Shown piece by piece: positions 35,701 to 63,054 of a stretch of 64,000 nucleotides of DNA. Both the position numbers and the translations under genes were made by a program. Source of the stretch: Savitreella phatthalungensis (lineage: Eukaryota); assembly GCA_051599415.1 (NCBI GenBank), contig AP039708.1, positions 124,001-188,000 of the forward strand, read 5' to 3'. Positions within the stretch are counted from its first letter, which is position 1; every line of letters starts with the position of its first letter. The notes under the pieces were generated by a model, which was not told the origin of the DNA, searched no databases, and saw only the letters and a program-made list of their open reading frames with translations.

Positions 35701-38334
35701 ACCATTCAACAGAAGACCCGGGTTGTCCGGGTGGGTGAGTGCCGATGTGGCCCGGAGAGGGAAGCTCGCAGCCGAGGGCGATGGCAGGGACCGGAGACGA
35801 GAATGGTGCTGCTGGCTGGAGGCCGTGCCGACACTTATGACGGACGCCCTGGCCGGCTGCCTTCCGCCGTTCAGATGACCGAGCTCATACGTGTCAAACT
35901 GGAGTGATGGGTCGTCTCCCGCAGAGGTCTCTCCCGTCGTGATTGGGATCTGCAGCGGGAAGGAGATGTTCGTAGGGGAGAGGACGGACTCGAGGTGGAA
36001 GTCTGAGAGCTGTGCATTGTCTGGAGACGATCGTCGAGCAGACGATCCACGCTTGCGGATGGGAGGACGCTCAGCGAGCTTTCGCTGACGCTGGGCAGTC
36101 TTCTTCCGCTTCGCCTCGAGCTTGACTGCGAAGTTGGCTGCGTTGCTCGTGAGACCGAGGAGCTTCTGAGCCTTTGAGGCCATGGATTTCTCTGGCACCA
36201 TGGACTTCTGAAGGGCTCCGTACAGATCAGTCGCCTCATCCGAGTCGTCGCTGTCGACATCGGAGTAGTCGCTGTCTCCCTGACGGAGACCGAGCGTCGA
36301 CAATGCCTTTGCCTCCTTTCGGTTGTCCTGGCGGTCCTGGTGGGCGGCGTAAATGTCGTTCGGCATGTCGAACTCGTCCAGGTTGTACATGGACACGCGA
36401 GGCTGCCTGCGGGCGACGGTTGTCGGCGCGGCAATCTGGCGGATCGGGACGGGTGCCTGGAGTTGCGTCGATGTCGGCACCACGGCCTTTGAGAGCGGCG
36501 GTGCGAGGACTGCGCTTTGCTCGGGCTGAGGCGAGTTAGCCGACTTGACCGATGGGCTCGAGGTCTGTGACTTTGCGCCGGAGAATGGGTCGAAGAAGGC
36601 GACAGAATTGGCCACGAGCTTTGTGCGGTCCTCGGAACGAGCTGGCGAGGCTGCGCGAGCTGGTACGATGATCGGCGCTGGCTTGACAATTGGGGTGGCT
36701 CGGGGTGCAGGCTCCTGCTTTGTCGGGCGATCCTGTGGCCAGGAGAAGTCCTTGAAGGGCTGATCTGGCGCGGGACTCCTGGGCGCGCCGAAGACGAGCT
36801 TTGGGGAGCGTGAAGGTGCCCGTACAGCAGGTGCTGCAACTGGTGCCGGTGCGGGCACAGCTGGCGGAGGACTCGGTGTCAGGACCATCGGTCGCAGACC
36901 CTGGGAGTCGATGGTCGGGGAGGGCGGCTTGGGATCAGGCTTGACAATCTCCTTTGCCTTGAGCTCCTCGTCCAGCTTGTGCTGCATGTACGCGTTGTAC
37001 GACTCGAGTAGCCACTTGACGTCGACGCCTCGGAATTGCTCGGCTGCTGCTCCACCCTGTGCCATCGCTGCCATCGCAGCCATCGGGTCTATTGCTGATG
37101 GCGCAGGTGTCGGTGCTGGTGCTGGTGCTGGTGCCGATGCTGATGCCGGTGCTGCAGGAGTAGTTGCTGCGGGCGACTGTGCGGGCGCCGGTGCTGCTGC
37201 TGCTGCTGCTGCTGCCGCCGGTATTTCCCGTTTCTGTGAGACCTCCTTGTTCATGTCGTCCGATGTAGCAGAGGGCCGCTTGACGATAGAGGATGGCCGC
37301 CTGGAGCCGTTGCTGATCTGGGAGGAGGTCTTGCGTAGTCCTGCACTTGAGGGTGAACGCACGGAGCCCGATCTGAGAGACGCACGGATCGCTGCCGGTG
37401 AGAATGTGCCTGATGTGGGTGACGCGACAGGGTACTTGGGCGAGCCACTTGCGTAAGGGTTTGCCACTTTTGCACCTGGACTCGGCGTCGCTGGCGGATC
37501 GATCTTGCGGGTGGGTGTGAGGTTGAGCGGTGCAGGTCGGTGCTGCTCCGGACGGTTTGCGAAGGGGTCCTTGAAACCTGTTTCTGCCAGACCGTCGGAA
37601 GGAGGCTTGACCGTCTTGTCTAGCGATGCGAGGAATTTGTCGACGTTGTTGGTCTGGGTTGAGGCGACACGAGCGGACGACGGCGATGGTGATCCCGCTT
37701 GTGCCCGTGTCGTTGCTGGTGGTGATGTGAGCCTCTGCGGTACGGCTTTGGGGGTGCTGGCAGTGGGTTTCCCAACTTTGACTGGCAGTGGCTCAAGAAC
37801 CTCGACCTGCTGCTTGATGATGTTGTCGTCGCTCTTGAAGGTCCCACCGCCGAGTTTGGGGGAGACTGCTATACTCTTTGGCCTGGCGCTGCCGATTGAG
37901 ACACTCTTGCGACTTGCTCCGGAGATGCTCTTTCGGGGGGATGCGCTAGAGATGCTCTTTCGGGGTGATGCGCTAGAGATGCTCTTTCGGAGGGACGCGC
38001 CGGAGATGCTCTTTCTCGGGTTGACCTGGGGCAGACGAACGTTGGCCTTGCTGACCCTGCGCACATGTCTGACCTCGCCTGTGACTGCGTCCTTTCCTGT
38101 GAGGACAGTGACGGACTTTCCCTTCTGCCAGGGGACGAGGTCCTTGAACGGGTTATTGTCGTCGACGCTGTTTCCATCGTCGCCGTTCGAGAGACCTGAT
38201 TGCTGAGATGTCCTGCGCAGCTTTTTGACGCCGATGATGCCGCTCGACAACCTGCGCTCGTATGAAGGGTCGCGAACAGGCGCCTTTGGCAACTTGCGAT
38301 CCTCCTTCTTCAACCGACGGATCCTATCCGCCAT
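32719..38334 (-). CDS. Large intrinsically disordered S/P/A-rich hypothetical protein (1871 aa)
   Basis: 5.6-kb stop-free frame, low complexity, several DPF-type motifs, no recognised fold. Confidence 0.75.
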   Translation of the reverse strand: MADRIRRLKKEDRKLPKAPVRDPSYERRLSSGIIGVKKLRRTSQQSGLSNGDDGNSVDDNNPFKDLVPWQKGKSVTVLTGKDAVTGEVRHVRRVSKANVRLPQVNPRKSISGASLRKSISSASPRKSISSASPRKSISGASRKSVSIGSARPKSIAVSPKLGGGTFKSDDNIIKQQVEVLEPLPVKVGKPTASTPKAVPQRLTSPPATTRAQAGSPSPSSARVASTQTNNVDKFLASLDKTVKPPSDGLAETGFKDPFANRPEQHRPAPLNLTPTRKIDPPATPSPGAKVANPYASGSPKYPVASPTSGTFSPAAIRASLRSGSVRSPSSAGLRKTSSQISNGSRRPSSIVKRPSATSDDMNKEVSQKREIPAAAAAAAAAPAPAQSPAATTPAAPASASAPAPAPAPTPAPSAIDPMAAMAAMAQGGAAAEQFRGVDVKWLLESYNAYMQHKLDEELKAKEIVKPDPKPPSPTIDSQGLRPMVLTPSPPPAVPAPAPVAAPAVRAPSRSPKLVFGAPRSPAPDQPFKDFSWPQDRPTKQEPAPRATPIVKPAPIIVPARAASPARSEDRTKLVANSVAFFDPFSGAKSQTSSPSVKSANSPQPEQSAVLAPPLSKAVVPTSTQLQAPVPIRQIAAPTTVARRQPRVSMYNLDEFDMPNDIYAAHQDRQDNRKEAKALSTLGLRQGDSDYSDVDSDDSDEATDLYGALQKSMVPEKSMASKAQKLLGLTSNAANFAVKLEAKRKKTAQRQRKLAERPPIRKRGSSARRSSPDNAQLSDFHLESVLSPTNISFPLQIPITTGETSAGDDPSLQFDTYELGHLNGGRQPARASVISVGTASSQQHHSRLRSLPSPSAASFPLRATSALTHPDNPGLLLNGPRSPSTSSPTSANFRAIEAGPPRGPSAVSPTSEAFPDTSVTQRLLMEAPTPVPAQAPAEPAAPANPLLGMGGAYGMMQQQLQQQMKRNNSQGPLPGNLNDKSSRESKLKMEMAELAARLDLDEIPQMSFELKKDVAAAAAAADTPKTRSASQNFSQARAEAIKEARRRSRQNRDMFRQASVATGTNLPTIEQSPRVPQRENSPEARVPQPPSKLNSQPSQSSHDSAPSEDYVHRPASTASSRKSSRKSGEFAGLGLTVPDVPSESEADTPRASQQSTFQPAPEPVPAPVAAPLPAPIQRPRQESLDWSMSNPNPTPLTISRPGVSSRKSTRDRMALSNPARTSRPTSIRETASIRSVSRESRISATSSNRDYNISYYDPSADTAASTSKPSPVMQNDPFRNLSRRPSMISNKSNKSVSNSVLAAAARQPQKSPATSIKSPALDLAPSSDPFRHLSSLQAPSSHVSARKASAASSTRSALSDTQQHQQVPAAAGFALAPAPNTRTHARTVSNSSVQTGSSIDSLVNKYAQQLKIASPVPQQQQAASASPNLFGDLQVGQQRSPSVASPQPQQMNAFQAARRVSTARQLGSRTPSASSPVPVTTPVLPQHTERTPRVVQASAQQAGTAAATPTQSPDMAAPNNTPQSAYFNRADVPAPFRVPNSPAWTSSPDGGESSPVRATFAGAQSYVPETSSSLARPATVRQASVESIVLHEQMAAQQQSSAGMTRHQRISSLAAAEDALFGYEEAEKRRSSGRTTSTSSIPQLTTIDPTPPQPVQPQVYKSLEQLQTARSPDLDRPQQSSSVAACAVTRNAPASPRIAQTQNQPAAALRRADTVTDIRIRPDLGGPSHQRSNTTTNGGLYHQAPAAASAPKQRAATQMGTSSVASGGFDIRRALARNSDDEDEDAEGYDPSPFAKRPTGPRKTSNSSFTTNATTNFFSTAGAPPLRSQTQQAVSQASAAAAQAAQASAQVAGEQLDRLANTASAAFSKWFG
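37905..38020 (-). repeat. 27-nt coding tandem repeat (PRKSISxAS x4)
   Basis: GAGATGCTCTTTC recurs every 27 nt; the protein reads PRKSISGASLRKSISSASPRKSISSASPRKSISGAS. Confidence 0.85.
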
Positions 38335-45319: not shown

Positions 45320-47143
45320 ATGAACAAGAGCGACGTCCATCACGAAGAATCGGCCATCGGCGGTCATCCACACATCACCAAGGATGACCTCAACAACAAC
45401 CTCGACGCGAGAATCTCGAATCCGCTTCAATTTCTCACAAAGGACCAGCTCCTTGCAGACGTAGACAACTTCTGCAGCGAGAATGGGCTTGGCGCGGAGC
45501 AGGAGATCATCCGCAAGGGCGCACTCGTCGCCCAGAACCCACAGGAATTCGAAAACATCGGCGAGCTCTCGTCCGACGATGTGGCCCACCTGCGCGAGGA
45601 GGTCACCCACAGGTGGAGGCACCCGAGCATGCTCTACTTCGCCATCGTCCTCTGCTCCATCGGTTCGGCCGTCCAGGGATGGGACCAGACTGGCTCCAAC
45701 GGAGCAAACCTCTCATTCCCACAAGAATTCGGCATCGGGTCCGAGTCGGACTACGACACCCTCGTCGTCGGCGCCGTCAACGCCTCCCCCTACATCGCCT
45801 CTGCAGTCCTGGGTGTCTGGCTGTGCGACCCGTTCAACACGCTTTTCGGACGTCGCGCGACCATTTTCGTTTCTGCCATCCTCTGCATCGTCGGACCCCT
45901 CTGGTCCGGATTCTGCGTCTCCTGGCGCGAGCTCTTCATGGCCCGATTCGTCATGGGTCTCGGCATGGGACTAAAGGGCTCGACCATCCCGATCTACGCG
46001 GCAGAGTCCGCACCCACCCTCATCCGCGGCGCCCTCGTCATGTCTTGGCAGCTCTGGACCGCCTTTGGCATCTTCCTCGGCTTCTGCGCAAACCTCGTCT
46101 TCAAGGACGTCGGCAAGAACGCCTGGAGGTTCCAGCTCGCATCCGCCCTCGTCCCGGCAGTCCCACTCGCAGCAGGCATCTTCTTCATCCCAGAGTCCCC
46201 GCGTTGGCTCGTCCGCAAGGGCCGCTATGCAGAGGCCTATGCATCCCTCCTCAAATTCAGAAATTCACAAGTTCAGGCAGCACGTGACCTCTATGCCGTC
46301 CACGCACAGGTCCGCGAGGAGACTCTTGTCATCGGCCCTGTCGGCAACCCCTTCAGCCGATTTGTCGAGCTCTGGACCATTCCTCGCAATCGTCGCGCGG
46401 CCATCGCGTCCGGCACAGTCATGCTGGCACAGCAATTGTGCGGTATTAACATTATCGCATTCTACTCGTCGACCATCTTTGTCAAGAGTGGTGCGACTGC
46501 TACAGAGGCTCTGGCTGCCTCCACTGGCTTCGGTGCTCTCAACTTCGTCTTCGCCATCCCAGCCCTGTTCTTGATGGACACTTTCGGTCGTCGTTCGCTT
46601 CTCCTTGCCGCTTTTCCGGCAATGGCCTTCTGGCTACTCGCCACAGGCCTCTTCTACATCATCCCGGAGACCTCCAAGGCCCACCTCGGCCTTGTAGCCC
46701 TCGGCGTGTATTTATACAGTGCCTTGTACTCAGCGAGCGAGGGTCCAGTCCCGTTTGCGTACAGCGCTGAGGTCCACGCGCTTCGGGTACGCGAAGTCGG
46801 CATGTCCTGGGCCGTTGCGACATGTTTAGGATGGGCTTCGGTGCTTTCGCTCACTTTCCCGCGGATGCTTGTCGCTTTTGGCGTCACTGGATCGTTCATC
46901 TTCTACGCCGGGACCAACTTGCTCGCTCTCTTCCTCATTTTCCTGTTCGTGCCCGAGACAAAGCAGCTGTCGATGGAGGAGCTCGACTTCGTCTTCGCCA
47001 CCCCTCACAGAGTCTTCATCCGCTACCAGTTCAAGGAGGCTCTGCCGCACTGGTTCAAGACCAAGATCCTCCGCCAGAGGCTTCCACCTCTCGAGCCACT
47101 TTTCCGTCGCACTTCAGTTGCGTCGTCTCAGCTCGAGAAGTAA
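45320..47143 (+). CDS. MFS sugar porter (polyol/myo-inositol-like transporter)
   Basis: QGWDQTGSNGAN, FGRR, PIYAAESAP..IRGALVMSWQLWTAFGI, PESPRW, QQLCGINIIAFYS and VPETK; 12 TM helices. Confidence 0.93.
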   Translation: MNKSDVHHEESAIGGHPHITKDDLNNNLDARISNPLQFLTKDQLLADVDNFCSENGLGAEQEIIRKGALVAQNPQEFENIGELSSDDVAHLREEVTHRWRHPSMLYFAIVLCSIGSAVQGWDQTGSNGANLSFPQEFGIGSESDYDTLVVGAVNASPYIASAVLGVWLCDPFNTLFGRRATIFVSAILCIVGPLWSGFCVSWRELFMARFVMGLGMGLKGSTIPIYAAESAPTLIRGALVMSWQLWTAFGIFLGFCANLVFKDVGKNAWRFQLASALVPAVPLAAGIFFIPESPRWLVRKGRYAEAYASLLKFRNSQVQAARDLYAVHAQVREETLVIGPVGNPFSRFVELWTIPRNRRAAIASGTVMLAQQLCGINIIAFYSSTIFVKSGATATEALAASTGFGALNFVFAIPALFLMDTFGRRSLLLAAFPAMAFWLLATGLFYIIPETSKAHLGLVALGVYLYSALYSASEGPVPFAYSAEVHALRVREVGMSWAVATCLGWASVLSLTFPRMLVAFGVTGSFIFYAGTNLLALFLIFLFVPETKQLSMEELDFVFATPHRVFIRYQFKEALPHWFKTKILRQRLPPLEPLFRRTSVASSQLEK

Positions 47144-48404: not shown

Positions 48405-50522
48405 ATGGACGATCGAGGAGAGGGAACTTCGCGACAGCCGTATACCCGCACTGAGACCTCGCAGCCTGGACCAGTAGATCAAGCCATGTCTACTGGTTCT
48501 GAAGGGACGCCCGGCAGGCTCGACTGGATCGAGGCTCTTGAAGGTGGTCCAAGACTGACGAACTTCCGCAAGCAAGTCTGGTCTTGGTGGGAGGAGTGGT
48601 TGGAAGATCAAGAGCTTCAAGAGGTAATCACTCCGGACAAGCCACCAACGGGCCGTCAGCTACTTGAGTTCATGGCCGTACTCGCCGCGCGCATGGAAGG
48701 CAACCCAAAGCAACCGTATATCCAGGGCAAGCCGGACAGGCGCCCGAGTATAGACACTGTGAAGGAGATACTTGGCGCAATCTTGAAGTGTCTGCAAAGC
48801 TGGGCGCGTGGGGAGGCTCAAGACGCCCTGTTGCACTGGAACCTTAAAATGCAAGGAGCAGTCAACATCATGTCTCGCTTGCGCGACTTTGATCTGATAT
48901 CTCTCGGAACAGACCGAGAATGCTTGAATCTCTACGGCACGGATTACCTCGAAATGATGCTCGCAGGGTTCAAGATACAATTCAATTCCCAACTTCACGA
49001 CTGGGGGGAGTTTGTTGCCAAAGCTTCGGTGCTATCAATAGGTTACATGACCGCTGCACATGCTGATGAGATCTTATACGACCGTGAAGATGCTGAGCCT
49101 TCCACAAGACCGAAAGACCTGCCAACGATGCGATGGCGCGATATCCAGTTTCTGCTTCCTTTGTCGGAGGATAGCGGTTTCCGAGCACTGATCTCGTTCG
49201 AGCACAGCAGAGGGAAGAAGAGGACGGTCGCAATCGAACAGACTCGCGAGGGTCCGTATGCAGCCATCGATCCTGTGTCGATATTATTGGCACACGCTTT
49301 CCGACAAAAGGTCTTTCAAGACTTCAAGCGCGAGGAGCCAGGCGAACATCCATTTGATTGGCTGAAGCGCAATGTTCTCGCAACCGGATCCATCCTACGG
49401 ATCCGTCCTGAGGCTCGGGACAGGCCGGTCTTCGCGACTGACTCCGGATTCCCGCAAGACACACGGTTCGCGGACGCAGCCTTGAGCATGTTCCTCGATG
49501 CAGCAGGCATAGTCCAAGACCTCAATTACATGGACATGCGGCGGGGAGCTGCTTCGTGCTGGCGCCACATCCGGAACATTGTTCCGGGGTATCTCGAAAT
49601 GGTAGACACGACTGAGAAGGCCGCTCACAAGCTGATGCAGGCAGGCAAAGGCATCAAGGTGACTGAACACAACATACCACGTCCTCCAAAGCGCATTTCT
49701 GCTCTGTTCGACTCAAAGCAAGACGATTATGAGTATCGGTACATCAGTCTTGTGGCCTGCCTGAATGCGTCTTACTGTCGTCGGATCAAGTTTCTTTCAC
49801 AGTTCGTCGACGATGCTCTACCGAGCACTATGCCATCTGTCAGAAAGGTCGAGCGACTGCGCTTCCTGGATGATATACGAGCGGTGCTCGTGACGCATCA
49901 TTCTGCATCGGAGATTCCCGCCAAGTCTATTCTACTGACGGCTGTGGAAGGGGAGAGAGCATTCATGGAACTGCCCGCCGACTTCGACCAGATGCGCCTA
50001 GCGGGTCGTAAGACCGCTGAGCAAGCGAGACAGGACGCTCCAGCTCATCAACGTAAAGATGCTCCTGAGATCGACACACGGGCTACTGATGCCTGCGACG
50101 ACGACTTAGAGGGTCAGCGCTTCTACTACGATGACCAAAACAGAGAAGATCCGGTGAGCTATAATCAGTTTGTCGAATTGGCATGCGGCAACTTCGACGA
50201 AATATCGAAAACTGGCTCGAAAGGAAACCCGATCATCAATGATCGACAACTTGTGAAAGTTTTGGCGACAGCCACTCGTCACATCAACTCACCGACCGCG
50301 CCTACTCGCTACGTGTGTACAAGGTGCAAATTTTCAGCAACTTCCGTGGGTCTTATTTGCTGCCACCTGCGCGAATCGTGCCCGACAAGCCGAGATGCTG
50401 TGCTCCCTGTGCAACGCGAACCCAACATGGATGATCGCAGCTCCAAAGCGAGCGAGCCACAAGGTAATCTCGGCTCGGCAGACCAGGAGGCAGGAGACGC
50501 GAAGCGGCGTCGGCTCGGATGA
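48405..50522 (+). CDS. Tyrosine-recombinase-like protein (DUF3435/Crypton-like), intact ORF with apparently substituted active site; C-terminal Cys/His zinc finger
   Basis: The motif order TAAHADEIL...MRWRDIQFLL...IDPVSILLAHAF...LRIRPEARDRPVF...YMDMRRGAA matches fungal transposon YRs. CTRC-x12-HLRESC forms a finger. Two degraded paralogues lie downstream. Confidence 0.72.
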   Translation: MDDRGEGTSRQPYTRTETSQPGPVDQAMSTGSEGTPGRLDWIEALEGGPRLTNFRKQVWSWWEEWLEDQELQEVITPDKPPTGRQLLEFMAVLAARMEGNPKQPYIQGKPDRRPSIDTVKEILGAILKCLQSWARGEAQDALLHWNLKMQGAVNIMSRLRDFDLISLGTDRECLNLYGTDYLEMMLAGFKIQFNSQLHDWGEFVAKASVLSIGYMTAAHADEILYDREDAEPSTRPKDLPTMRWRDIQFLLPLSEDSGFRALISFEHSRGKKRTVAIEQTREGPYAAIDPVSILLAHAFRQKVFQDFKREEPGEHPFDWLKRNVLATGSILRIRPEARDRPVFATDSGFPQDTRFADAALSMFLDAAGIVQDLNYMDMRRGAASCWRHIRNIVPGYLEMVDTTEKAAHKLMQAGKGIKVTEHNIPRPPKRISALFDSKQDDYEYRYISLVACLNASYCRRIKFLSQFVDDALPSTMPSVRKVERLRFLDDIRAVLVTHHSASEIPAKSILLTAVEGERAFMELPADFDQMRLAGRKTAEQARQDAPAHQRKDAPEIDTRATDACDDDLEGQRFYYDDQNREDPVSYNQFVELACGNFDEISKTGSKGNPIINDRQLVKVLATATRHINSPTAPTRYVCTRCKFSATSVGLICCHLRESCPTSRDAVLPVQREPNMDDRSSKASEPQGNLGSADQEAGDAKRRRLG

Positions 50523-53500
50523 TCGAGGACGACGACCCTTGCCCGACCACATATTGGCGCTCAGCAGCACCTCCCGCGCATATATACGCACTTAACGACT
50601 ATTCTGCTACATCGTCTCTGACGTTGCCAAGCAGTGCTCCGCCATCATCTCAAGAAGGATTCCGAGCCCATCATCAGCAATGCATCTCTATTGAACGACT
50701 AATCTCGACGTGAATCTGTGTCCAAGCATCCCTGTACGAGCCCTTGTGCGCCTTGATCGCTGTTGTCGAGTGAACGAGAGCAAGTGCAATCGGCACATAT
50801 TGCTGTCCCACGCTCAGAAGACCTTTCACTCGTACATGCATCCGCAGGCACGTACACACTTACACACATTATCACGCACGACCAGACCAAGACGGGCGCA
50901 CGTTCGCTGGTAAGACCTGTCAGCTCACCAGATTGAAGAGTAAGCTGCGAGTATAGCACCTATGCCCTTCGGCCTCATCGGACGATGATGACAACACCGA
51001 CCTCCTCTTTCACGGCATAGAATAAAACCTCGACAAATGATGCAGGCGAGATGACGCTGAAGAGATTCAATATTTGCCATCCGACAACATGCATGCATGT
51101 TTTCTAAGTCATGTCAAATAGCGCATGACTGACAGGTCCTACACGATGCACATAATCAGTCGACTCCCTGAGATTGTGACAGTTATGGTCAACACTTGCG
51201 CGCGACGCGCTTCAGATGGTGCTCACGAGCCTTGCTCTTGGACAACGGTGGGAGCGAGCTTGATCTTAAAAGCGCTCCTGCATCGTAAAGGCACGCTGCG
51301 CAATGAGATCTTTGGACATCACGCTCGCCAGGATGCGCTTCAATCAGGCTATCGCTGATGCTCCCTCTACGACCTTCACTTACGCCCGCGGCGGAGCTCG
51401 AACAACAACTCCGATCAGAAATGATTGACAATGACGCAGATCAGAAGCGCTCGCCACCCCTCATCGCCGGACGGATTGCCGGCGCTCTCAAAAACCAGGC
51501 GCATGCGTGGATCGCGTACAATGATCGACCAGACGGTACAATCTCTCTCGGCTCAGCTGGCTGCAGCGGAAGTGTTCATCGCCCTTATACTGAGCGGGTC
51601 GCGCGAAGACACCTCATGCGTCTGGATCTTTGAGGACGCTCGCGATATGGACCGCATTCAGGCATTGACGGCACATGAGACGTCGCGGCAGGGGACGACG
51701 CAATCTGCGCTTTCTTGCGTGCAAAGATGCTGCAGAAGAGACGAGTACCCCGATGAAGTTTACCTCAGTCAATTGAGTCTATGAACCATCGGAATCATGA
51801 AGATGCCGACAAGCTGCTGTCAGGTGAGACGGTCGGTCTTGGCAATCTTCCCTAGATCATCAGCTTTCACGTTGCGGTGGCTCTCGACATCTACAGCCTT
51901 GACAGTATGACGATGCCCGAGCTGCAATTTACACTTCTGATGTCACGCCTGAATTTGACGAAGACGGCATCGCCTTCAGCGCTACCTTGTCTTGAGATCA
52001 GAATATAATTGCTAGAGATGCGGACGATTGAAACGGACGGTAAGTGAGCGTTGATGAAGCTCCTACCCGTCGCTTGCTTGAGACTTGTACTTGTCGGGTT
52101 GTTCGACTATTCAGGAAGCTGTATGAGGGGCTCTCGAGTGTCAAAGTTAACAGGCGAGCGAGACTGAGAGCTCGACGGCGGCTGTCTCACCACGGCACAC
52201 TGGCATGGCCATTATCCCACTTAACTGTCTTGACTCGTCGTCAGCCGGGACCCTCATCACAGACTGGTAACAACGCCTGCTTCTACTCATGCGGCTGCGT
52301 TAGCAGCATTGTGGATTCTCATTGTTGTCCTACTCCGATCGCATCTCTATGCCCATACTCACCGTCAACGCCGATTATGGTGTACGATGCAAAGTGCGAA
52401 GAGTGCTTGTGGCCTGTGCCAGTCGCGAGATCGTCAGCGCGCTACTGGTCAGTAGTTCTTGCACTTGCTCGACCACACATTGACTGGCGTTAATCTCGAT
52501 GCCGCGCTCCATCGCCGGTACGTCTGGCAGTTGCGGAACAATTTTTCTTCCAACAATCGACGTGCTCGATGTTCCGTCTAGTGGACGACAGCCGCTAAAA
52601 TCGGCTTTGCAGGCCGCGCATCTCCAGGTGGATTCAGTCCAGCACTACTCCGAGGACGAGTGCACCAAGCTCAGACACTATCCTTCTGCAGAGCCTTTAC
52701 ATGTCAAGTAACCGATCAGACATCGTCACGTGAGCGCGCAGACCGATTGGACAATGCATATATGCATGTTCATTGTGTGTACAAACATGCATGCCTTGTA
52801 CAAAAGTCATGATCGTCGACGCTCTCAATGCGAAGTATCTCTATTGTCATTGTCTTGTGCGCCTGGCAAGAAACTTCAATCATAACCCGTCGTTGTATGA
52901 ATACATCACGTCACCAATACTCTCCTGTCGTGCAAATGGCTGAGTTGCGCAGACGGTTGGCTAACGCCCACACGACATTGACCTTGAACACGTGTGTGCT
53001 CAAGGTTGCCACGACTTGCAAACACACTGCCCGGCAGCTCCATATATTGACTATCTTTAGTATGATCAGCGTCTCAACGACGGGTTCCACATCAGAGACT
53101 GCCGTCATACGTCAGTCATCCTTGAATGGACCGGTGTCCGTCGAGCAGCCGTTGATAAGATAAACGTGCATGACGCGTTGGAAATTCGCGGTGAATGAAT
53201 ATTCGAAATCTGTTGGGCGTGTTCAGATATCATCCCCTCTCACTGGGCCCAGGTTCACGTGCCATGAATTAGTCTCGAGCGATGCACAATCTCCATCAAT
53301 CGCCCCTCAATCATCAGTGATCGCGCAACACCTTAATCGCCACGTCGGAAGATGGAGAGGAAAGACAATGGTCGACCTGAGAAGCAGCGCATCGAGCGTC
53401 CTAGGTCTTCTGCCAGGGAATTGTCGTCTTTCGGCGACCTTGAGAGACCGTGAGACGTAGTACAGACCCCTGCAGGACTGCTTTTCTGTGGTGTTCATTC

Positions 53501-53704
53501 GTATCAATCGATTGAGCTGCATTCAGCTCGAAATGAAACCAGGCGTGCTAGTCCCAGTGACGTAAAGGCATTTTACAGTTGCTCATTGATGCATAGCCGG
53601 TCTGCGAATACTTATAGTCGTCCATAGTCTCTTCAAAAAACTCTACATCGCTATCGCTCTCCAGAACATCAAGACTTCGTCAATCAGCATGCGAAGCGCC
53701 CACC

Positions 53705-55972
53705 ATGAGTGACAATGGAGAGGAGACGTCTACACAGCACCCAAGACGCCGAAGCAGGCGCAAGCTCACGCCTGTGAACAGGTCGCTGATTCGAGATATT
53801 GAATCGAAGACTAATGACTGTGACTGGATCGATCGACTCGTGGAGCACCTCGGACGAGGGTCCGGAAAGAAAAACAGTGGTTGCGAAGGCATTTGTGAGG
53901 CCTATCGCGTGTGAACCAAGATTTCAGCAACACCAGTATCGCGTCGGGGACTTTTCGAATCGTATCCACTCCTGGGCGGATGTCGTACTTGCCATTGACT
54001 GGTGGCCACTTGGGATTGCCAACCAACCGTGTGGCAGTATAGCAGATGAAAGCTAGCAGATCTTTTGCCCTTGGCGGATTTTCGAAGGCGAACTCGTATT
54101 GGCATGCTCGGTCCTTTCCCAGAACTTCCACAAGTTCACGTTCGAGCACCACCCAACCTCAGGAGATCTACCCGCTTTCATCTGCCATACTACTACACGC
54201 TTGGCTGGCATTCCCAAGTGGCCACCAGTCAATGGCAAGTAGGGCATCCGCTCAGGATTGGATACGATTCAAAAAGTCCTCGACGCGATACTCGTGTTGC
54301 TGAAACCTTCATTCACACGTGACAGACCCCACAAATGCCTTCGCGACTGGACAAGCGCGAGGTAGAACAACATCAATACCATGTCAATTGTCAGAGACCT
54401 TGATCTGGTGTTCCTCTGAACCACTCGTCCCGAAATTTGTATTCACGCCACAGAGTACCGAGAAGCAATGCTCGCAGGCGTCAAGTCGCAGCTGAACACA
54501 AGACACCACAATTGGGACGTTTTCTTTGCGAGAGCCGCAGCCGTCTCTATTGCGTTTATTATTGTGGCTCGCGTAGGGGGCATTCTGTGCGACCGACTGG
54601 CATTGAAACAGCCCGGGTCAGACGAACCACCGACAATGCGCTAGTCGGCGTTAAGGCTCTTCCTTGCTACAAGGAACGGCGCTGGTTTTCGCATCGAGAT
54701 CGCGCTCATGGAAAGGCTGCCTAGAGTCGTGCTGTCCAAGTTGTCATGGCTAAACAGGTCGTCAACGGCTCCCTTGCCGCAGTCGATCCGGTGATAATGT
54801 TGCTTGCCCATGCCATCAGGAACAACGTAATCGAGACGACCACCCCTTGCGAGCCAAATGAGACGGTCATGACCTAGCTATAGCGCACGCGCCCCACCGA
54901 GGACAAATGCCTCACGATACGCCCTGAAGTGCAGCATGAGCCAGTCTTCGTCACTCGTGCTGACGAAGCGCACCACACACGGTTTTCGAACGAGGCGCTT
55001 GGACACTTCTTTGGCGTCGCCGGTGTCAAGATGTACCTCTCCATCCACGACCTTCGTCGAGGAGCTGCTGCGTGCAAGGCTGCCCTGAATACGATGGACC
55101 CTGAGTTCTCACTCTGCTGAGCGTGGTCCATTGCGTACGGGAGAGTACTATGGCGATCGTCAATTCAGGGAGCTAAGCTTTGTGACCAAAGAGGAAGTCA
55201 GACGATCCGCTGGAAAGCGCATTCCTGCTACGCTCGACGAACTCCGTCTATCGGGTCGTGATTCGACACTACGACAGTACAACACCACCTCTGCCGAGAA
55301 AGAGGACGAGGACGAGAATGACGACGAAGATAAACAGGAGGACCAGGACTATGATGAGGACAAGGACGATGACGACAGCGACAATTGTTCAGAGAGTAAC
55401 GTCACGAGCAAGGCCCCGAAGATGAAGGTCGAAAATTCGGCCGAGCTTCAGGAAATCATCGGCGAAGAAGACGAATGCGAAGACGAAAGTCGATGAACGA
55501 CTCGACGACGCCCTTGTTCAGCAATTCATTCCCGACGCGGACGAGAGGCTAGACTCCACCGTGGCCGATGACTTGCTGGTGGATGCCGAATATCTCTTAC
55601 TCATCGCGACGACTGCCGCCGGCTGCTCGGAGTCGGTGAACAAGACCGTGTACAGAAGCGCTGGGTGCAGTTACCAGACAAATGTGGTATCGCGTATTTG
55701 CAATCACATGCTGGGAGTGTGAACACTCCGTGCGAACGACCGGTCGGCGGTTCCTCGCATTGCGCGCGGATGCGTGGAGACCTTCGTCGGAAATACTGAC
55801 AACCGGACAACCATGCTCATGCATGCCCAAACCCACCACCGCCACATGCGCATCTGACCCAATTTTGGGAGAAGATTTCAACGCTTACCCGTCTGCGCGG
55901 AGTGCTTCATTCCGATGCACCAAGAAAACATGTTTGTGCACAAGGCTCATTATCAGCGACCAGGGAACTTGA
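53705..55972 (+). pseudogene. Disrupted YR paralogue (copy 2) with internal inverted segment
   Basis: Collinear similarity to the 48405 ORF: MSDNGEETS/DWIDRL; HNWDVFFARAAAVSIAFIIVARVGGIL...PTMR*; VDPVIMLLAHAI; IRPEVQHEPVF; IHDLRRGAA; IPATLDELRLSGR. In-frame stops, frameshifts and deletions are present. Confidence 0.8.
53880..54346. repeat. Long inverted repeat (hairpin A): arms ~53880-54053 and ~54174-54346
   Basis: CTTGCCATTGACTGGTGGCCACTTGGGA in the left arm is the reverse complement of TCCCAAGTGGCCACCAGTCAATGGCAAG in the right arm. Complementarity extends ~170 nt. Confidence 0.9.
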
Positions 55973-56021
55973 TGGTGCAATGAGATCGCCTTCTGGCCGC
56001 GAATGTCTCGTTCGTGGCGAA

Positions 56022-56594
56022 CAATAGGCTACCACGTCCTCCAACGCCTCTACACAATGCAGGAGAGCCTCTTAGGTCTGAGGGCCCTTGGCTGCTCTAC
56101 CAGACTAAGCTCTACGACGTTGCAAATCTGCCAGAGTCGAATATGCCGGCGAAGCACCGCAGCGCCAAGGGTATGGCATTCAAGAGAGACCCTCGTACGC
56201 TTGCGCGGACCGGAGCACTATGTCTGTCGCCACCAGTAAGAGACTTCTTGGCCTGACTTCTCGCTTCTTGATGGGTGCGAGTCTTGTTAGGACCGGGCGC
56301 TCCATCTTCGTTGTCATTGACAATCAGTTCGCCGCCATCGTCGGCGATGGTGATGACGTCCGCGGCAACTTGGTTCTTACTGGTGGCGACAGACATAGTG
56401 CTCCGGTCCACGCAACCCGTGTGAGGGTCTCTCTTGAATGTCTTACCCTTGATGCCGCGGTGCTTCGCCGGCGTATTCGACTCTGGCAGATTTGCGACGT
56501 CGTATAACCTGGCCTGGACGGGAAGCCAAGGTCCTTCAGACCTCAGAGGCTCTCCTGCATCGTGTAGAGGCGTTGGAGGTCGTGGTAGCCTAGT
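56022..56594. repeat. Long inverted repeat (hairpin B): arms ~56022-56240 and ~56375-56594
   Basis: GGACCGGAGCACTATGTCTGTCGCCACCAGTAAGA pairs with TCTTACTGGTGGCGACAGACATAGTGCTCCGGTCC. Both strands encode the RLPRPPTPLHxAGEPLRSEGPWL peptide. Confidence 0.9.
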
Positions 56595-57443
56595 GCCCGC
56601 TACGATCGCAGGGGAAAAGGCAAGGTGACCTACTATCGTGTTCCTCCCGAGGACGACCATGACGGCGGCTTTGCAGCCGGTCTTAGTAAGCGTCTGACCC
56701 GCCAAACCACGAGAGCCCAGACAAAGAAGCCTCGTATCTCTAACCCCGGCGAAGATCTTCTGACAGCTTCATCAGTCAATCGCGGTAACTAGAACAAGAC
56801 TCATATTCGTCAGGCTCGCTCGACCAAGGCCGCTCGACCAAGGCCAATGACAGCGAGGATGACGAAGGTCCGCAAGGACATTCACAGCGCCAGAACCTTC
56901 GCGAAAGAAAAGGGCAAGGCTGAACAGATTTACGACTATCCTTCCTCTGAGGAAGATTAGACATCATCTGAATCATCGACTTGAGAGCGACTTGAAACCT
57001 GTCCAAACCTATCCAACTTAACGAAGTCTATTACGAACGGATCCACACATGACTATCATCCGGCTCATCCAGTTCATCAGTCCATCGGCCTTCAGCCACA
57101 GTTCTTTTCCACCAAGTGGTCCTCAGTCTAGAGAAGGTCGTGTAGGCTTCCATATTGACTATCACTCGTTTTCACTCGGATTACGTACCAAGACTTAAAC
57201 GGAATCCGTCTGGGGGAGAGGTTACACACGCGCCACTGTCTCTAGCATCGGACATAACGTGTGATATCCCATGATCCATCCGGTTGACGCTCTATCCTCG
57301 GAAGAACATATCAATCGCAGCGTTGTGGTGTGTCTGTGAAGCACTGATCACTCTTGTGGACAGCTCATACGATGACGTTCACCGTATGTCACACACAACT
57401 TGTACGTGTACGTCCATATAATTTACAGATTTACATATACCTA

Positions 57444-57534
57444 CAAGAGACCCTTCCACACACCGTCACTGTCCAAGAGACAAACCTTCGAGACCCTTCC
57501 ACACGACCGTCACTGCCCAAGAGACGGACCTTCT
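57444..57534. repeat. ~45-nt direct tandem duplication
   Basis: GAGACCCTTCCACAC(G)ACCGTCACTG(T/C)CCAAGAGAC occurs twice. Confidence 0.8.
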
Positions 57535-57590
57535 GACTTTCACACACTATCAAGAACACACACCGCGCACCCTACGAGACTCTCGTGAAA

Positions 57591-58228
57591 ATGACGCGAA
57601 AGGAATCTGTCAGCCACGAGAGCCAAATTCTGCCAGATGATGGCATTTGGCTACACCCCGCCATTCGAGTCGATCCGATCAAAGGCGAACATATCTTCGC
57701 ACTCACGCGTATCATACGCAGTGTTGAGGCGCATGCTGTACGCCTCGACTGGCTGCTGAAGATCGACGGACTTGATCCTCAGCCTCCGGAGCTGCTAGCG
57801 ATGCGGCACCAATGTACCGCTTTCGCCCTCAGTGGTGCTCGGCCAATCGACATTGCTGCTCCGGACGACCGGTTCAAGATCAAGGCCGGGGCTTCAAGGA
57901 TCACCGGAAACCATGGGATGCGCCCTTGAGACGCGCTGCTAGGCTTCAGGGCACTGAAGCGACCTTGATTGCGCGTGTCGACGTTTCTGGCAACCTGGAC
58001 CTTTCCATTGAAGGGCACACCGACGGAGTTCTTCAGAGCACAACACACGAGCTGTACTGCAATGCAAATTATGAGAACGCCATCAATGTCTTCGAGCTGG
58101 ACAATGTTGCGTGTGGTCAAACTCGCCCGAGGCTGCATCTTCTGGATCGATATGCAGGTGCAGGAGACCACGCATGCAACATTGCACTATCTGCACTGAG
58201 TTACCCTCGAATTATCATTGCGATGTAG
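57591..58228 (+). pseudogene. Frameshifted gene of unknown family (paralogue of the 58342-58830 minus-strand copy)
   Basis: ORFs 57585-57929 and 57812-58228 overlap in different frames. RAARLQGTEATLIARVDVSGNLDLSIEGH matches the minus-strand RAARLQGVKAILSARMDDYSHLGMSIDGH. Confidence 0.55.
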
Positions 58229-58341
58229 CCGCACCAGCCGCCACTCATTCTCGACGCGGTTGCTGGGTATCAGGGTGTTCTGATCGTCCTTTCATGTTCC
58301 GGTGCTTGGAACGCCCAGCTAACGCTCACATGGAAAGACGA

Positions 58342-58830
58342 TCAGAACACCCTGATATCTAGCAACCGCGTCGAGAAGGATGCTTGGAACCTCGCCATAG
58401 CCTCGAGTCGATCGAGACAATCATTCTCGTCTCCCTCGGCCACATTTTCAAGCAAAAGTTGCAGGAAGACAACCCACACGAGTGGATGCCCAACATACCA
58501 TAGGGCGCGACCTTCTGAGGGCTTCTCTTCTGCCAGGCTGAAAAGATCAATGGCAATCTCCCAGTGGCCATTACACCTTAGCCCGTGAGAGTCACTCTGC
58601 AGGATGGTAACAATGTGCCCGTCGATTGACATGCCTAGATGACTGTAATCGTCCATACGGGCGCTCAAAATCGCTTTGACTCCCTGGAGTCTTGCAGCGC
58701 GAGTCAAGGGCGTATTCTACTGTCTCGCTTTGCTAGGAGCAGGATTCTCTGTTGACTTGAAGCGGTTGGTTGCAGGAGCAAAGTCGACAGAGAATTCTGT
58801 TCCTGCCACGGAAAGACAATGGGATGCGCC
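58342..58830 (-). pseudogene. 5'-truncated paralogue of the same unknown family
   Basis: Peptide similarity to 57812-58228 (LQSxxHxLxCNxxxExAIxxFxL). An upstream stop interrupts the frame. Confidence 0.55.
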
Positions 58831-59152
58831 CTGCTGTGACCAACGGAACTGTACATGAAGGCTGGCATTCCACGGTCAGCGATCAGCATTTGATCATCCG
58901 ACCTTCCTCGAGGCCGATATTGACCATCTTGTCGATGGTGCGATAGGCGGAGGCAATCGATTCGGCCAGCGGTGCAGTATCGTTCGCGATACAACGGCAG
59001 GTGTGGCCGACCTTCTTGCTAACAACTTGGTGATACAAGCGCTCACGAGCAGCTTCCTCGCCGTCTTCGACACTTTGCCAGAATTCTGGGGCCATCATCT
59101 TCATCGCAGCTTCGCACGCAGCACTTCCACGACGGATATCGTGAATGCTGAG

Positions 59153-59445
59153 ATGGTTCGCGATGCCGGCAGCTAAAAGGATATGGCCAAGTGCATCGTT
59201 CAGGAACCTCGTGTGGTGCGGTTCTCCAGCAGAATTCACGAACACGGACTTGTCCATAATCTCGGTTCGCGTCCTCAGAACTTTGACTACAGCGAACAAC
59301 CGTCACTGTTGACCAAGTCTTGAGGATGCGAACCGAGGTCATGGACAAGTCCGTGTTCGTGAATTCTGCTGGGGAACCACACCACACGAGGTTCCTGTAC
59401 AATGCACTTGGCCATTTCCTTTTAGCTGCTGGCATCGCGAACCAT
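59153..59445. repeat. Near-palindromic inverted repeat (hairpin C): ~143-nt arms, loop under 10 nt
   Basis: Hand alignment gives about 15 mismatches over ~143 nt, including a perfect 32-bp block CCAGCAGAATTCACGAACACGGACTTGTCCAT. Confidence 0.93.
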
Positions 59446-59463
59446 TAACGACGACGACGGCGA

Positions 59464-60011
59464 CCGAGACGATGCTGGGGACGCAGCCATCGAATTTGTA
59501 AATGACCAGGACTGCTGAATCGTGCGGCTTGGTAATGCTTGCCAACGAATGACCGAACACAGACGCATGATGTGGATGCTCTGGGAGGAGAATCTGACGG
59601 ACGAAAGCTTAGTCTTCACGGTCGCCAATCCACCCGACAGTCGGGACCTTTTGAACTTCAGGTGCTCAACGATCAGCACCCAACCGCATGCAATCCGAAA
59701 GACCCAAAGGTTACCGGAAAGCTCACCGACAAGGAAGCTCACCGACGGTGAAGCTCGCCGCCCTTGCTTTAGGTGCTTTAGGATTGCATGCTGATGATGA
59801 TGGTTGAGCGCATAAAGTTCAAAAGGTCCCGACTGTCGGGTGGATCGGCGACCGTGAAGACTAAGCTTTCGTCCGCTAGATACTCCCCCCAGAGCATCCA
59901 CATCATTCGTCTGTGCTCGGTTAATCTTTGGCAAGCATCATCAAGCCGCACGATCCAGTCGTCCTGGTCGTGTAGAAATTTGGGTGGCTGCGTCCCCAGC
60001 TTCGTCTCCGG
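59464..60011. repeat. Long inverted repeat (hairpin D): arms ~59464-59710 and ~59765-60011
   Basis: CGGACGAAAGCTTAGTCTTCACGGTCGCC and CCACCCGACAGTCGGGACCTTTTGAACTT recur as exact reverse complements. The loop contains AAGCTCACCGAC repeats. Confidence 0.92.
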
Positions 60012-60373
60012 GACGCATTTTGTGCCCACTTTGGTGTTGTCGCGGCTGCCTGGATCTGCCCTCGCCGGGATTAGTGACCTTCGAAATGCACTTGAGGATC
60101 TTTCAGAGCGTCTCAAAGAATCCTTAGCAGATGAGTGGAATCCAGAGAAGCCTGTCGTGAATGGACGGTGGAGGTGTAGATGACGGACGGCTTCTATAAG
60201 ACAGTAATTGACTCACATCTTCGTCGTGAGCCTTCTCAGACCGGCGTAATTCGTTACATTCTTAGTTGAGTCCAATTAATCGCATAGGCAAGTTCTGCGC
60301 CTTCTCAATGGTGCAGATGGTGCACATGATTTGATCAGCTGATCAACGTAATGATGGCAATGGATCTGCTACT

Positions 60374-60434
60374 TTCAAAGATGGCAATCATCCCGATTCT
60401 GTTCAAAGTTGGCAATCATCCCGATTTTGTTCAA
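60374..60434. repeat. 28-nt direct repeat x2
   Basis: TTCAAAG(A/T)TGGCAATCATCCCGATT(C/T)TG occurs twice in tandem. Confidence 0.85.
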
Positions 60435-61186
60435 TCTCGTGTGGCGACCAAAGTTTCGGGGCAACAGGTTGACCAACGTGCGCATTGACCGGGACACCCC
60501 TGAAGATCTATGTCTATGAGGATACACCACAAACACACACATGGTTGCTCGTGGATATATGGATGATCAAACGATTCCATTCTGAATCAGGACCGTGCAT
60601 TGATCGGACTTATCCGGTAGTTCCAAATCTAAGCGGGCTGATTGAACGGGAATAGTTTCGTGGAAATCAACCACGGCACGAATCTACATATATTTAGTGT
60701 GCTCGATAGAGCAGGCGAGATCGAGCAAGAAGAAGTAGTCGTAGGCGCAGTGGTCGGAAGGCAGATCGATTTGCACGTCGCATCAGACTACGTGGCGAGT
60801 CCGTCACTGCAAATTCGGATGTGTGTTCGTCAGCTCATCGTTGCATGGGGACAAAACAATGCGGTCGTGCATTGCAAAAGCCTTGTATGAGTTTTTGCCA
60901 AAAATAGAAATGACGACATCCTGCCGGGGGGCTACTCGTAGCTGATTGATTACAAAGGTTCTATTCTAGCAAAAGCATCGACTGGACTTTAGCCGGCAAG
61001 AACTCGATCCATCTTTTTGCCATTCACAAAAGTGAGATAGGTACGAATGTTTGCAAAGAGAAGCTTGTAGCAGGCAGCAGGCCTGCAAGCACCAGAGAAG
61101 CACGGGAGATCACAACACTTCAAGGTTGGGAAGTCGCCTGCAATCTCCTTCAGCTTGAAGTTGCCTGTAGCCTGAAGTCGGCTTTA

Positions 61187-61258
61187 GCCTGCGGTCGCCT
61201 GTGATTGCCTGTGGGTGCCTGTGGGCGCCTATGGTTGCCTGCTGTTGCCTGTGGTCGC
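61187..61258. repeat. Degenerate 10-nt minisatellite (GCCTGTGGTT-like)
   Basis: GCCTG(T/C)G recurs at 10-nt spacing about seven times. Confidence 0.7.
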
Positions 61259-62469
61259 AGTAGTTGTGAGCCTGACTGTCGCAGTCTCATGGGACCATGC
61301 CACTCTGCGGCCGACTGCAAGTGGTCTTTGAAGTTCGACAGTTGTCTGATCGATTGTTGTCCACCTTCATCCTCGAGATCAATCAGGAGCAGACAGTAGC
61401 AGATAATAGTAGGCAGTAGTCGACAGACAGACAGACCGAGAGTATTCTGCGGTCGCAGTCAGCAGTATTTCACGTGTAGCAGTCATCGGATATGTGTTGT
61501 CACGTGAAGCAGTAATCAAATATGTGTTGCTGGTGCCGACGTCGCTGGTACACAATTGACGACTGGCTACCACCTGAATTTATCACGGACCGTTTGGCAG
61601 CAAGCCGCCATGAGCAGCGGCAGCAAAATCAGTAACGAGACAGCAATGAGCAGTCGCAGCAGCTGCTGTTGCAGCCGCACCAGCGCAGCGATCCCTCGAA
61701 TAATTGGAATTGCTCTAGATTTTTGTTCCGACTCGCCCTCGTGTTCCACATTGCGGGAGGCCGAATGAACTATCATGAGTATAAAGATCGACGAGAGCAC
61801 GGCTAAAGGACACCATGCGCTTGTGATGGGCCTTGGGAGGATCGAGATGGTCCTTCCAATTCGTACGTACATGGGATGCCGACGCGCGAGACACCACGAG
61901 ATTCGCTCCATCGTCAACTAGGCATGCGTCTTCGCATCCCACACAATGACCATCGAGCAATCTGCGACATTTCACGAAGTCACTCCTTACATAGGAAGAC
62001 GTTTCTGCCGCTCTGTGTTCATGGAGACCGAGAGTGCGGTCTTTTCAACTCGCTGTTCTTCTGACGCGGTTCCTCCTACAGATCCTCTTTTCGTGCAGCA
62101 CGTGTTCCCACACCTGAAAATAGTAGCTCAATAGCCACCCTGACAGTGCTGAAATAATTGCAGGAAATCAAGAATATGAATTCTGTGGTACACCTGACTC
62201 GAATATCCAGCATATTGTTCCGCTACTTATGGTCGGGACGACAAGATAACCAATATCTCCTCAGCTAAACTCAATATACATCCACGTCTCTTCGCTCTGG
62301 CATTCTTTTCACTGAGAGATCTGAAGTCGATCGCATTTCCACATCGATAAATTACCCGTCCTGATCAAACTCGACAATCGTATTCCTGAGCAGAGAAGGA
62401 CTATTGAATAACGTCAACACCAAGGAGAATACGCGGATGCGCTCGATGGGAGAATGTCTTCCGATCTAG

Positions 62470-63054
62470 TCAGGTCAGGTCAACCTGCTTCTCGCTGGTG
62501 AATCTGCGCTGGCGTTCCTCGCACTCCTTCACGAATACCCTCTGCGCCAGGAGAGCAAGGGCTCCTGCAACTGTCATCGCAAAAATCGCGGTGTAGATGC
62601 GCGCCAAGGTGTCCTCACCGAATGCTGCCAGTGGCGCGTAGCAGGTCCGCTGTGAGATCGATCTACCCATATCATTACAGAACGCCGAAGGGACGAACGG
62701 CTGCCAACAACACGATAACAGGTCCTGTACCAATGGTGAACCCTCCTCTCGGAAATACAGTGATAGCGGACGCAGCGACAGGAACCAGGCGTAGCTCCCA
62801 AGTCCTATCTCGCAAGCGACCGAAAGGACTGTGATGATCGACACCACTCGTGTCAGTCGGACCGATCGCGTGAAGTATGCCGGAATCGATAAAAGCGCAG
62901 CCACGAGAATGATAGCACCGACCACGAAGGAAAACCGCAAGTCTAGGGGCGCAATCCCGATCTTCAACCCAGCGTCCTTCGTTCCCAGGAGCAGTATTTC
63001 CCCTGCGATGTACGCTATCCCCGTCAAGGCAAACGGCGCGTGGACAAGAATCAT
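62470..63054 (-). CDS. Fungal tetraspanin, Pls1-like
   Basis: Four TM helices; LLSIPA after TM2; WFLSL after TM3; loop QDLLSCC...PFV...C...TCYAP; C-terminal KECEERQRRF. This is the Pls1 pattern. Confidence 0.72.
   Translation of the reverse strand: MILVHAPFALTGIAYIAGEILLLGTKDAGLKIGIAPLDLRFSFVVGAIILVAALLSIPAYFTRSVRLTRVVSIITVLSVACEIGLGSYAWFLSLRPLSLYFREEGSPLVQDLLSCCWQPFVPSAFCNDMGRSISQRTCYAPLAAFGEDTLARIYTAIFAMTVAGALALLAQRVFVKECEERQRRFTSEKQVDLT

Follow-up and report, generated by a model that had tools for sequence, protein, structure and literature searches.

A putative non-cutting tyrosine recombinase derivative with an intact 705-codon frame in the fungus Savitreella phatthalungensis

A 64,000-nucleotide stretch of the Savitreella phatthalungensis genome (assembly GCA_051599415.1, contig AP039708.1, positions 124,001 to 188,000 of the forward strand; hereafter the window) contains an intact open reading frame (ORF) of 705 codons that appears to encode a descendant of a transposon tyrosine recombinase. 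Comparison with two decayed relatives in the same window, relic 2 and relic 3, supports the loss of catalysis in this protein while its coding frame was retained. The reading that we favour, and that we consider to be about evenly poised, is that of a non-cutting descendant of the fungal DUF3435/Crypton kind, the frame of which has been kept by selection for a non-catalytic role. At present the ORF can be filed only as a divergent relative of the fungal recombinase group DUF3435/Crypton, and it counts as a candidate for the domesticated recombinase derivatives without being a proven one. A previous sequence-only reading of the window had proposed such a derivative, with the kinetochore protein Ndc10 as a precedent; the lost catalysis with a kept frame is supported, and a search with Pfam found no Ndc10-type domain. 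Coordinates of the ORF, its parts and its surroundings are collected in Table 1.

The loss of catalysis is read from the alignment of the ORF with both relics (alignment A3), in which three out of four residues of the R-H-R-Y tetrad (Arg-I, the box-II His and the Tyr) are replaced in the ORF and Arg-II is kept. His219 (CAT) is aligned with an Arg of relic 2 (CGC, position 54,570), Met376 (ATG) with a His (CAC) in relic 2 as well as relic 3, and Gln412 (CAG) with a Tyr of relic 3 (TAT), which falls on Met411 instead if a shift of one residue is allowed. Arg-II is common to all three (Arg379 in the ORF), and Glu222, beside the Arg-I site, is also retained. The surrounding blocks align well, with 44% identity in the 43 codons that include the Arg-I site and 38-40% in the 68 codons that include box II. 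The three replacements had been noticed in the sequence-only reading (at 49,059, at 49,530, and at 49,638 as LMQ facing LYH of relic 3), and their coordinates and alignment are confirmed here. The same reading had placed the likely Tyr position at Asn423 (AAC, 49,671); this residue is present, but lies opposite Leu/Thr in the relics. The Tyr of relic 3 would be a better candidate for the nucleophile because of its spacing: it is located 33 residues past Arg-II and 36 past the His, as counted on the relic-3 ORF sequence, and according to the available part of PMC10104507, Y381 at the His site of the fungal recombinase HhpA, a Captain, is 35 residues away from its nucleophile, Y416. Relic 3 also shows a Trp 18 residues after Arg-II. 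In the ORF, no Tyr was found at the expected distance of about 32-35 residues after Arg-II, a region that the profile alignment discussed below (hhalign) does not reach.

The relics are clearly non-functional. Searching the window with the ORF (tblastn) yields seven non-self high-scoring segment pairs (HSPs) in two places, and these contain 8 stops in 632 homologous codons when the relics are taken together; adjacent HSPs change frame. For relic 2, there are 6 stops in 315 homologous codons in its two forward HSPs and at least one frameshift, and its 5' part is inversely duplicated (arms 53,880-54,097 and 54,130-54,347). The HSPs across relic 3 show 38-44% identity. The earlier description of the relics as dead copies that keep the catalytic residues is thus half right: they are dead, but at 34-45% amino acid identity, and with no match to the ORF at the nucleotide level, they are, by their divergence, anciently separated lineages rather than copies of it. 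Between relic 2 and relic 3, nucleotide identity is 70%, over 166 nt only; 68 aligned codons of the two show 56% amino acid identity, with proportions of synonymous (pS) and non-synonymous (pN) differences of 0.60 and 0.27. Residues 5-133 of the ORF also have counterparts in the relics, whereas the C-terminal 298 residues have no significant one (best E 0.069).

The frame of the ORF is open from ATG to stop, as the sequence-only reading had it. The six-frame stop density in the adjoining 50,523-62,470 is 0.031-0.039 per codon, at which the chance of 705 open codons is about 1e-11 by our arithmetic, and the longest other open stretch in the neighbouring 12 kb is 218 codons. With the stop density of the relics, a frame of 705 codons would carry 8.9 stops on average (P(0) = 1.3e-4). 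The G+C content by codon position (0.61, 0.44, 0.58) follows the same pattern as in the host genes, with a third-position value inside the host range and close to its low end. The catalytic codons differ between ORF and relics by two (CAT/CGC), three (ATG/CAC) and two (CAG/TAT) bases, and a Met codon at the His site requires a minimum of three nucleotide changes from any His codon. In the conserved blocks, synonymous sites between ORF and relics are saturated (pS 0.67-0.98, pN 0.28-0.42). From the three-base change and the saturated synonymous sites, the catalytic loss probably goes back further than an unconstrained frame would stay open, and the frame thus seems to have been maintained while the catalytic sites drifted. 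We read the preservation of all 705 codons as selection for a non-catalytic role, which may have acted for the host or for the element; a retained frame would be compatible with both levels. The argument would not hold for an ORF that had reached the locus only recently, from an unsampled source.

Apart from the ORF, the family seems to be extinct. In a HMMER search of 1.84 billion representatives only the ORF itself and a 124-aa ORF of relic 3 were matched, and word-indexed protein searches returned the ORF itself only, whether made with the whole protein (8000 candidates scored), with residues 170-470 (2260 candidates at E up to 10) or with profile A2 (8000 candidates). In metagenome contigs, none of 34 pattern matches was confirmed. 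The 705-aa protein is recorded once in the public protein collection (a 90% cluster with 1 member, from 1 contig), and the protein collections that hold both the ORF and the relic-3 ORF contain neither a paralogue nor an intact, catalytically complete family member. The missing homologues may reflect unsequenced relatives. The relic-3 ORF (P0002, 124 codons, 58,883-59,257, minus strand) is recorded in public collections as a predicted protein, though it is a fragment of a dead gene.

The sequence of the ORF is present nearly unchanged in other samples. Pieces of it, at 99% identity or more, were seen in sequencing runs from four other studies, in contigs of 150-240 nt of the same species; each run covers 169-542 nt and shows 0-2 differences. 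At trace depth, contigs of this sequence are found in a phyllosphere metagenome run. The stretch of the ORF was found in no sequencing run recorded as RNA; run X7, which is RNA by guess only, contains a 169-nt contig identical to 48,885-49,053 that is not readable as transcription.

Several observations weigh against a selected, recombinase-derived protein. As to selection, a homologue in another organism was not found among 5.8 billion clusters, the 1.84 billion representatives and the metagenome contigs, and the ORF sits among the debris of its own family. Its codon-adaptation index (0.577) is the lowest among 18 ORFs of the window (others 0.615-0.765) and is not above that of its own off-frames. 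The two differences seen in another run, at a depth under 5, comprise a synonymous change in codon 289 and a non-synonymous change in codon 368. The debris, the missing orthologue and the poor codon adaptation are all in line with a functionless leftover, that is, a non-autonomous or recently disabled copy that arrived late, through trans mobilisation or horizontal transfer, and has had too little time for its frame to break. The surroundings agree with this as well: between 47.1 and 62.5 kb, 52 flanking stop-to-stop fragments (at least 70 aa) carry no Pfam family at E up to 0.01, so that there is no other recognisable neighbour gene. Yet the two to three base changes at each catalytic codon and the saturated synonymous sites point to an old loss, when set against the rate at which the relics have collected stops, and trans mobilisation needs an active relative, of which there is none in the collections that hold the proteins of this genome. 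We regard a leftover as unlikely, while giving it more weight than any of the alternatives that follow.

The ancestry of the protein can be argued with more assurance, and we hold that it very probably goes back to a tyrosine recombinase, on the basis of its language-model neighbours, a sub-threshold profile match of relic 3 and a weak, motif-on-motif alignment to Cre. In the language model, the whole protein lies closest to three clusters of DUF3435 families from Ascomycota (0.98, 0.97 and 0.97), 211 of 256 features are shared with the first of these, and nine out of the ten best family-bearing hits share family or clan. When only residues 185-470 are used, the named neighbours become NDC10_II (0.93), a Tyr recombinase domain cluster (0.92; 17% of its members carry PF00589), DUF3435 (0.89) and DUF3504 (0.88), on scores that are not calibrated for parts of proteins. 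Relic 3 matches profile positions 80-137 of 172 of PF00589, corresponding to its box-II part, at E 0.0071 and 16.6 bits, below the gathering score of 27.1 bits. When alignment A3 was compared by hhalign with a Cre-family alignment of nine members (phage P1 cre and eight phage relatives), with R173, E176, K201, H289, R292 and Y324 among the invariant columns, a single collinear alignment of 114 columns was obtained (Prob 1.2%, P 0.044). It pairs His219 with R173, Glu222 with E176, Met376 with H289 and Arg379 with R292, and its score of 21.4 was reached by none of 200 column shuffles (mean 13.5, sd 2.2, maximum 21.2).

The points that count against this ancestry are those that a chance resemblance of motifs would leave, with ORF and relics forming an unrelated, lineage-specific gene family. 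Besides its low probability, the hhalign result has a reversed-alignment control that scores nearly as high (19.5 versus 21.4). A check of the ORF against DUF3435, phage integrase and Ndc10 profiles, as suggested in the sequence-only reading, found no Pfam domain: neither the ORF nor its parts match PF00589, PF11917, PF16787 or PF12012 at E up to 10, and the only Pfam hits of the ORF up to that value are two unrelated, sub-threshold ones. PHROGs and NCBIfam searches with the ORF gave nothing relevant, and searches of the PDB by sequence and by profile gave none beyond one chance match at E 1.8. AlphaFold2 (AF2) models of the whole protein and of the domain are both unusable, with confidence values (pLDDT) of 42.4 and 37.7; only their order of secondary structure (a helix with the Arg-I site, three strands, helices) fits a recombinase catalytic domain, and Foldseek with the low-confidence domain model returned no match below E 1.5. 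Nevertheless, the language-model neighbours are consistently of the recombinase clan for the whole protein and for the domain, the relics show Arg, His-x-x-Arg and Tyr in the right order and with the Tyr at a fitting distance, relic 3 matches the box-II part of PF00589, and the sole hhalign alignment is collinear and sets motif on motif. An origin outside the recombinases is, in our judgement, improbable. As a 705-aa protein of a recombinase-derived class that evades Pfam, HMMER and AlphaFold entirely, the ORF suggests that divergent recombinase-derived genes in fungi are probably undercounted.

In the mechanism that we propose, the ORF would descend from a transposon tyrosine recombinase of the fungal DUF3435/Crypton kind that lost DNA cutting through the replacement of Arg-I by His219, of the box-II His by Met376 and of the Tyr by Met411/Gln412, and retained Arg-II (Arg379), Glu222 and possibly the hairpin Lys (K271/K272). 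The preserved frame would reflect selection for a role in which the protein binds DNA by the recombinase clamp scaffold together with its C-terminal C2HC finger, in the absence of strand exchange, and the basic C-terminus would direct it to the nucleus. The C-terminal zinc finger and basic run had both been pointed out from the sequence: the finger is real as a pattern (C638-x2-C641-x12-H654-x4-C659), with weak Pfam support (zf_C2H2_ZHX, E 0.048, under the cut-off), and the run is present at residues 700-703. No such zinc-finger pattern was found in the relic regions.

Tyrosine recombinases act as multimers. A dead subunit could therefore interfere with active ones, and the ORF has Arg-II and the scaffold blocks in common with the relics, so we considered a dominant-negative protein or repressor of its own transposon family, occupying recombination sites or poisoning recombinase tetramers. 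Its target, however, is hard to find: an intact catalytic member of the family is not detectable in the protein collections that contain the ORF and the relic-3 ORF, the relics are long dead, with palindrome arms that have diverged by 13-20%, and co-assembly is doubtful at 34-45% identity. We think such a role quite improbable. Slightly less credible still is a recombinase that remains active through a non-canonical site, with another Tyr (e.g., Tyr396 or the Tyr cluster near 447-451) and a His tolerated at Arg-I; the box-II His site is naturally His or Tyr in Captains (PMC10104507, in the part of its text available) and, as a further point that weakens our own reading, the Tyr position is inferred from a single relic, but the replacement affects Arg-I, the box-II His and the aligned Tyr at once, Tyr396 lies opposite Phe in both relics, the ORF is single-copy with no sign of recent transposition, and R173, H289, R292 and Y324 are invariant in the nine-member Cre-family alignment.

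Returning to the non-cutting descendant, its location may bear on its history. ORF and relics look like three lineages of one family that parted long ago, evolved largely under purifying selection and now lie no more than 12 kb apart, which hints at either a preferred landing site used more than once or an old tandem family. Scans of 40-64 kb for an integration target with tRNA and Rfam models found none. No flanking repeat pair (terminal repeats) encloses the ORF and no cargo region was seen; a single copy gives no boundaries. Tentatively, and with less confidence than in the general reading, we suggest a young, lineage-restricted exaptation, in which a non-cutting zinc-finger DNA-binding protein derives from an otherwise extinct, very divergent DUF3435/Crypton-like family and persists in single copy at the repeated landing site of three lineages, with fossils beside it that still display the catalytic residues it has lost.

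The island also contains five palindromic inverted duplications (53,880-54,347, 56,009-56,608, 58,245-58,380, 59,153-59,445 and 59,466-60,008) with arms that are 80-87% identical. Two of them double coding parts head to head: in relic 2 the N-terminal part, and in relic 3 the block with box II; the last two of the five lie in relic 3. Possible origins of the palindromes are fold-back repair, aberrant strand exchange or a source of hairpin RNA. Just past relic 3, a 28-nt unit forms a tandem pair (60,374-60,429; 93% identical).

The wider region is fungal, nearly intron-free and gene-dense. Upstream lie host genes for a G-protein alpha subunit, a MADS-box factor, a homeodomain factor, a glycine-cleavage T protein, a PhoD phosphatase, a Zn-cluster factor and a sugar transporter. 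Between 2,438 and 47,143 most host genes are single long ORFs without evident introns, such as that of the G-protein alpha subunit (429 aa, 11,698-12,987), which points to an intron-poor fungus. A frame of 1871 aa is open on the minus strand at 32,719-38,334, where the G+C content is 62-64%, and it matches no Pfam family at E up to 1e-5.

Table 1. Location of the ORF, its putative functional parts, its decayed relatives and the flanking host genes in the window.
Feature	Position	Strand	Basis or remark
Intact single-exon ORF, 705 codons plus stop (P0001)	48405..50522	+	ATG-to-stop frame without interruption
N-terminal helical region, possible core-binding-type domain (about residues 46-190)	48540..48974	+	Helical in the two low-quality AF2 models
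Recombinase-like catalytic-type domain (about residues 191-470)	48975..49814	+	Helix, three strands, then helices (low-pLDDT models); language-model neighbours; hhalign
His219 (CAT) at Arg-I position	49059..49061	+	Relic-2 Arg CGC at 54570; Cre R173 in hhalign
Lys271-Lys272, possible beta-hairpin Lys counterpart	49215..49220	+	Between predicted strands 2 and 3; low-confidence models, placement unconfirmed
Box II: Met376 (ATG) at His position; Arg379 (CGG), retained Arg-II	49530..49541	+	His CAC and Arg CGT in relics
Met411-Gln412 at relic-3 Tyr position, likely nucleophile site	49635..49640	+	Alignment A3
C2HC zinc-finger-like pattern C638-x2-C641-x12-H654-x4-C659	50316..50381	+	Pattern match
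Basic run of four residues (700-703), possible nuclear localisation signal	50502..50513	+	Pattern; function inferred
Relic 2, decayed relative	53705..55108	+	34-45% amino acid identity; keeps Arg-I and box-II His..Arg
tblastn HSPs	54135-54707 and 54737-55108	+	34% and 37% identity, joint E 6e-43
tblastn HSP	53916-54116	-	Relic 2 area
Relic 3, decayed rearranged fragments, third lineage	59048..60066	-	Keeps box-II His..Arg
tblastn HSP	59048-59299	-	38% identity, E 9e-13
tblastn HSP	59287-59520	+	Relic 3 area
tblastn HSPs	59811-59960 and 59953-60066	-	Relic 3 area
Sugar-transporter gene	45320..47143		Nearest upstream host gene
GDSL-lipase gene	from 63219		Downstream host gene

When the ORF is compared with known recombinases, Cre of phage P1 is aligned collinearly over 114 columns with the Arg-I helix and box II superposed, albeit at the low probability given above. 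Where the Cre family has R173, H289 and Y324, the ORF has His, Met and no counterpart, respectively. Cre is half the length of the ORF, which has a C-terminal extension.

The Starship Captains (DUF3435, PF11917; e.g., HhpA and Kirc) are, like the ORF, fungal proteins of about 700-800 aa, and include its nearest language-model clusters (0.98-0.97), the first of which is named with a C2H2-type domain. DUF3435 recombinases form a clade of their own, separate from Cryptons, according to the available part of PMC9156397. The relics show the same order of catalytic residues as Captains, with a His-to-Tyr distance of 36 in relic 3 and 35 in HhpA. In the portion of PMC10104507 at hand, Captains carry an RKHRY pentad, with a His site that varies between His and Tyr; in contrast, the ORF is without Arg-I, the His/Tyr site and the nucleophile Tyr, and the Met that it has as residue 376 is not reported at the His site in that portion. 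The ORF further differs from Captains in the absence of a PF11917 match even at E 10, and of a cargo region or terminal repeats around it. In the literature on catalytically inactive or domesticated DUF3435 proteins, no case was found among the matches listed, and supplements may hold relevant alignments.

Derivatives of CryptonF provide a second parallel. Based on the part of PMC3212892 available, these are DNA-binding proteins from a fungal recombinase lineage, and the catalytic site has not been kept in Cbf2/Ndc10 and Gcr1. NDC10_II is the top named language-model neighbour of the ORF domain (0.93), and the comparison with Ndc10 is only an analogy together with that neighbour, with no such domain shown by Pfam. 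CryptonF proteins and their derivatives (Cbf2/Ndc10, Gcr1, Hot1/Msn1) have the GCR1_C domain in common (PMC3212892, same part), whereas GCR1_C is not matched in the ORF at E up to 10, and the C2HC pattern is found at the C-terminus instead. CryptonF-derived genes are conserved across species; the ORF has no detectable orthologue in the 1.84 billion representatives.

A third parallel is with the DUF3504 genes of animals (ZMYM2-4, QRICH1, KCTD1, KIAA1958, WOC), as DUF3504 clusters are among the language-model neighbours of the ORF domain (0.88). As far as the available parts of PMC3212892 and PMC13465315 go, such genes are recombinase-derived, lack most of the tetrad, often have zinc fingers, and are involved in transcription regulation. 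The pattern of loss is different: Arg-II and Tyr are gone in DUF3504 genes, and in the ORF it is Arg-I, His and Tyr that are gone, with Arg-II still present.

Were the ORF non-functional, it would be an ordinary transposon remnant. The known domestications of tyrosine recombinases (Ndc10/Cbf2, Gcr1 and the DUF3504 genes) took place so long ago that the transposons they came from have disappeared. If functional, the ORF would represent a recent domestication with fossils that bear the catalytic motifs still adjoining it, in which the order of residue loss, the reuse of the scaffold, and the benefit to host versus element become addressable.

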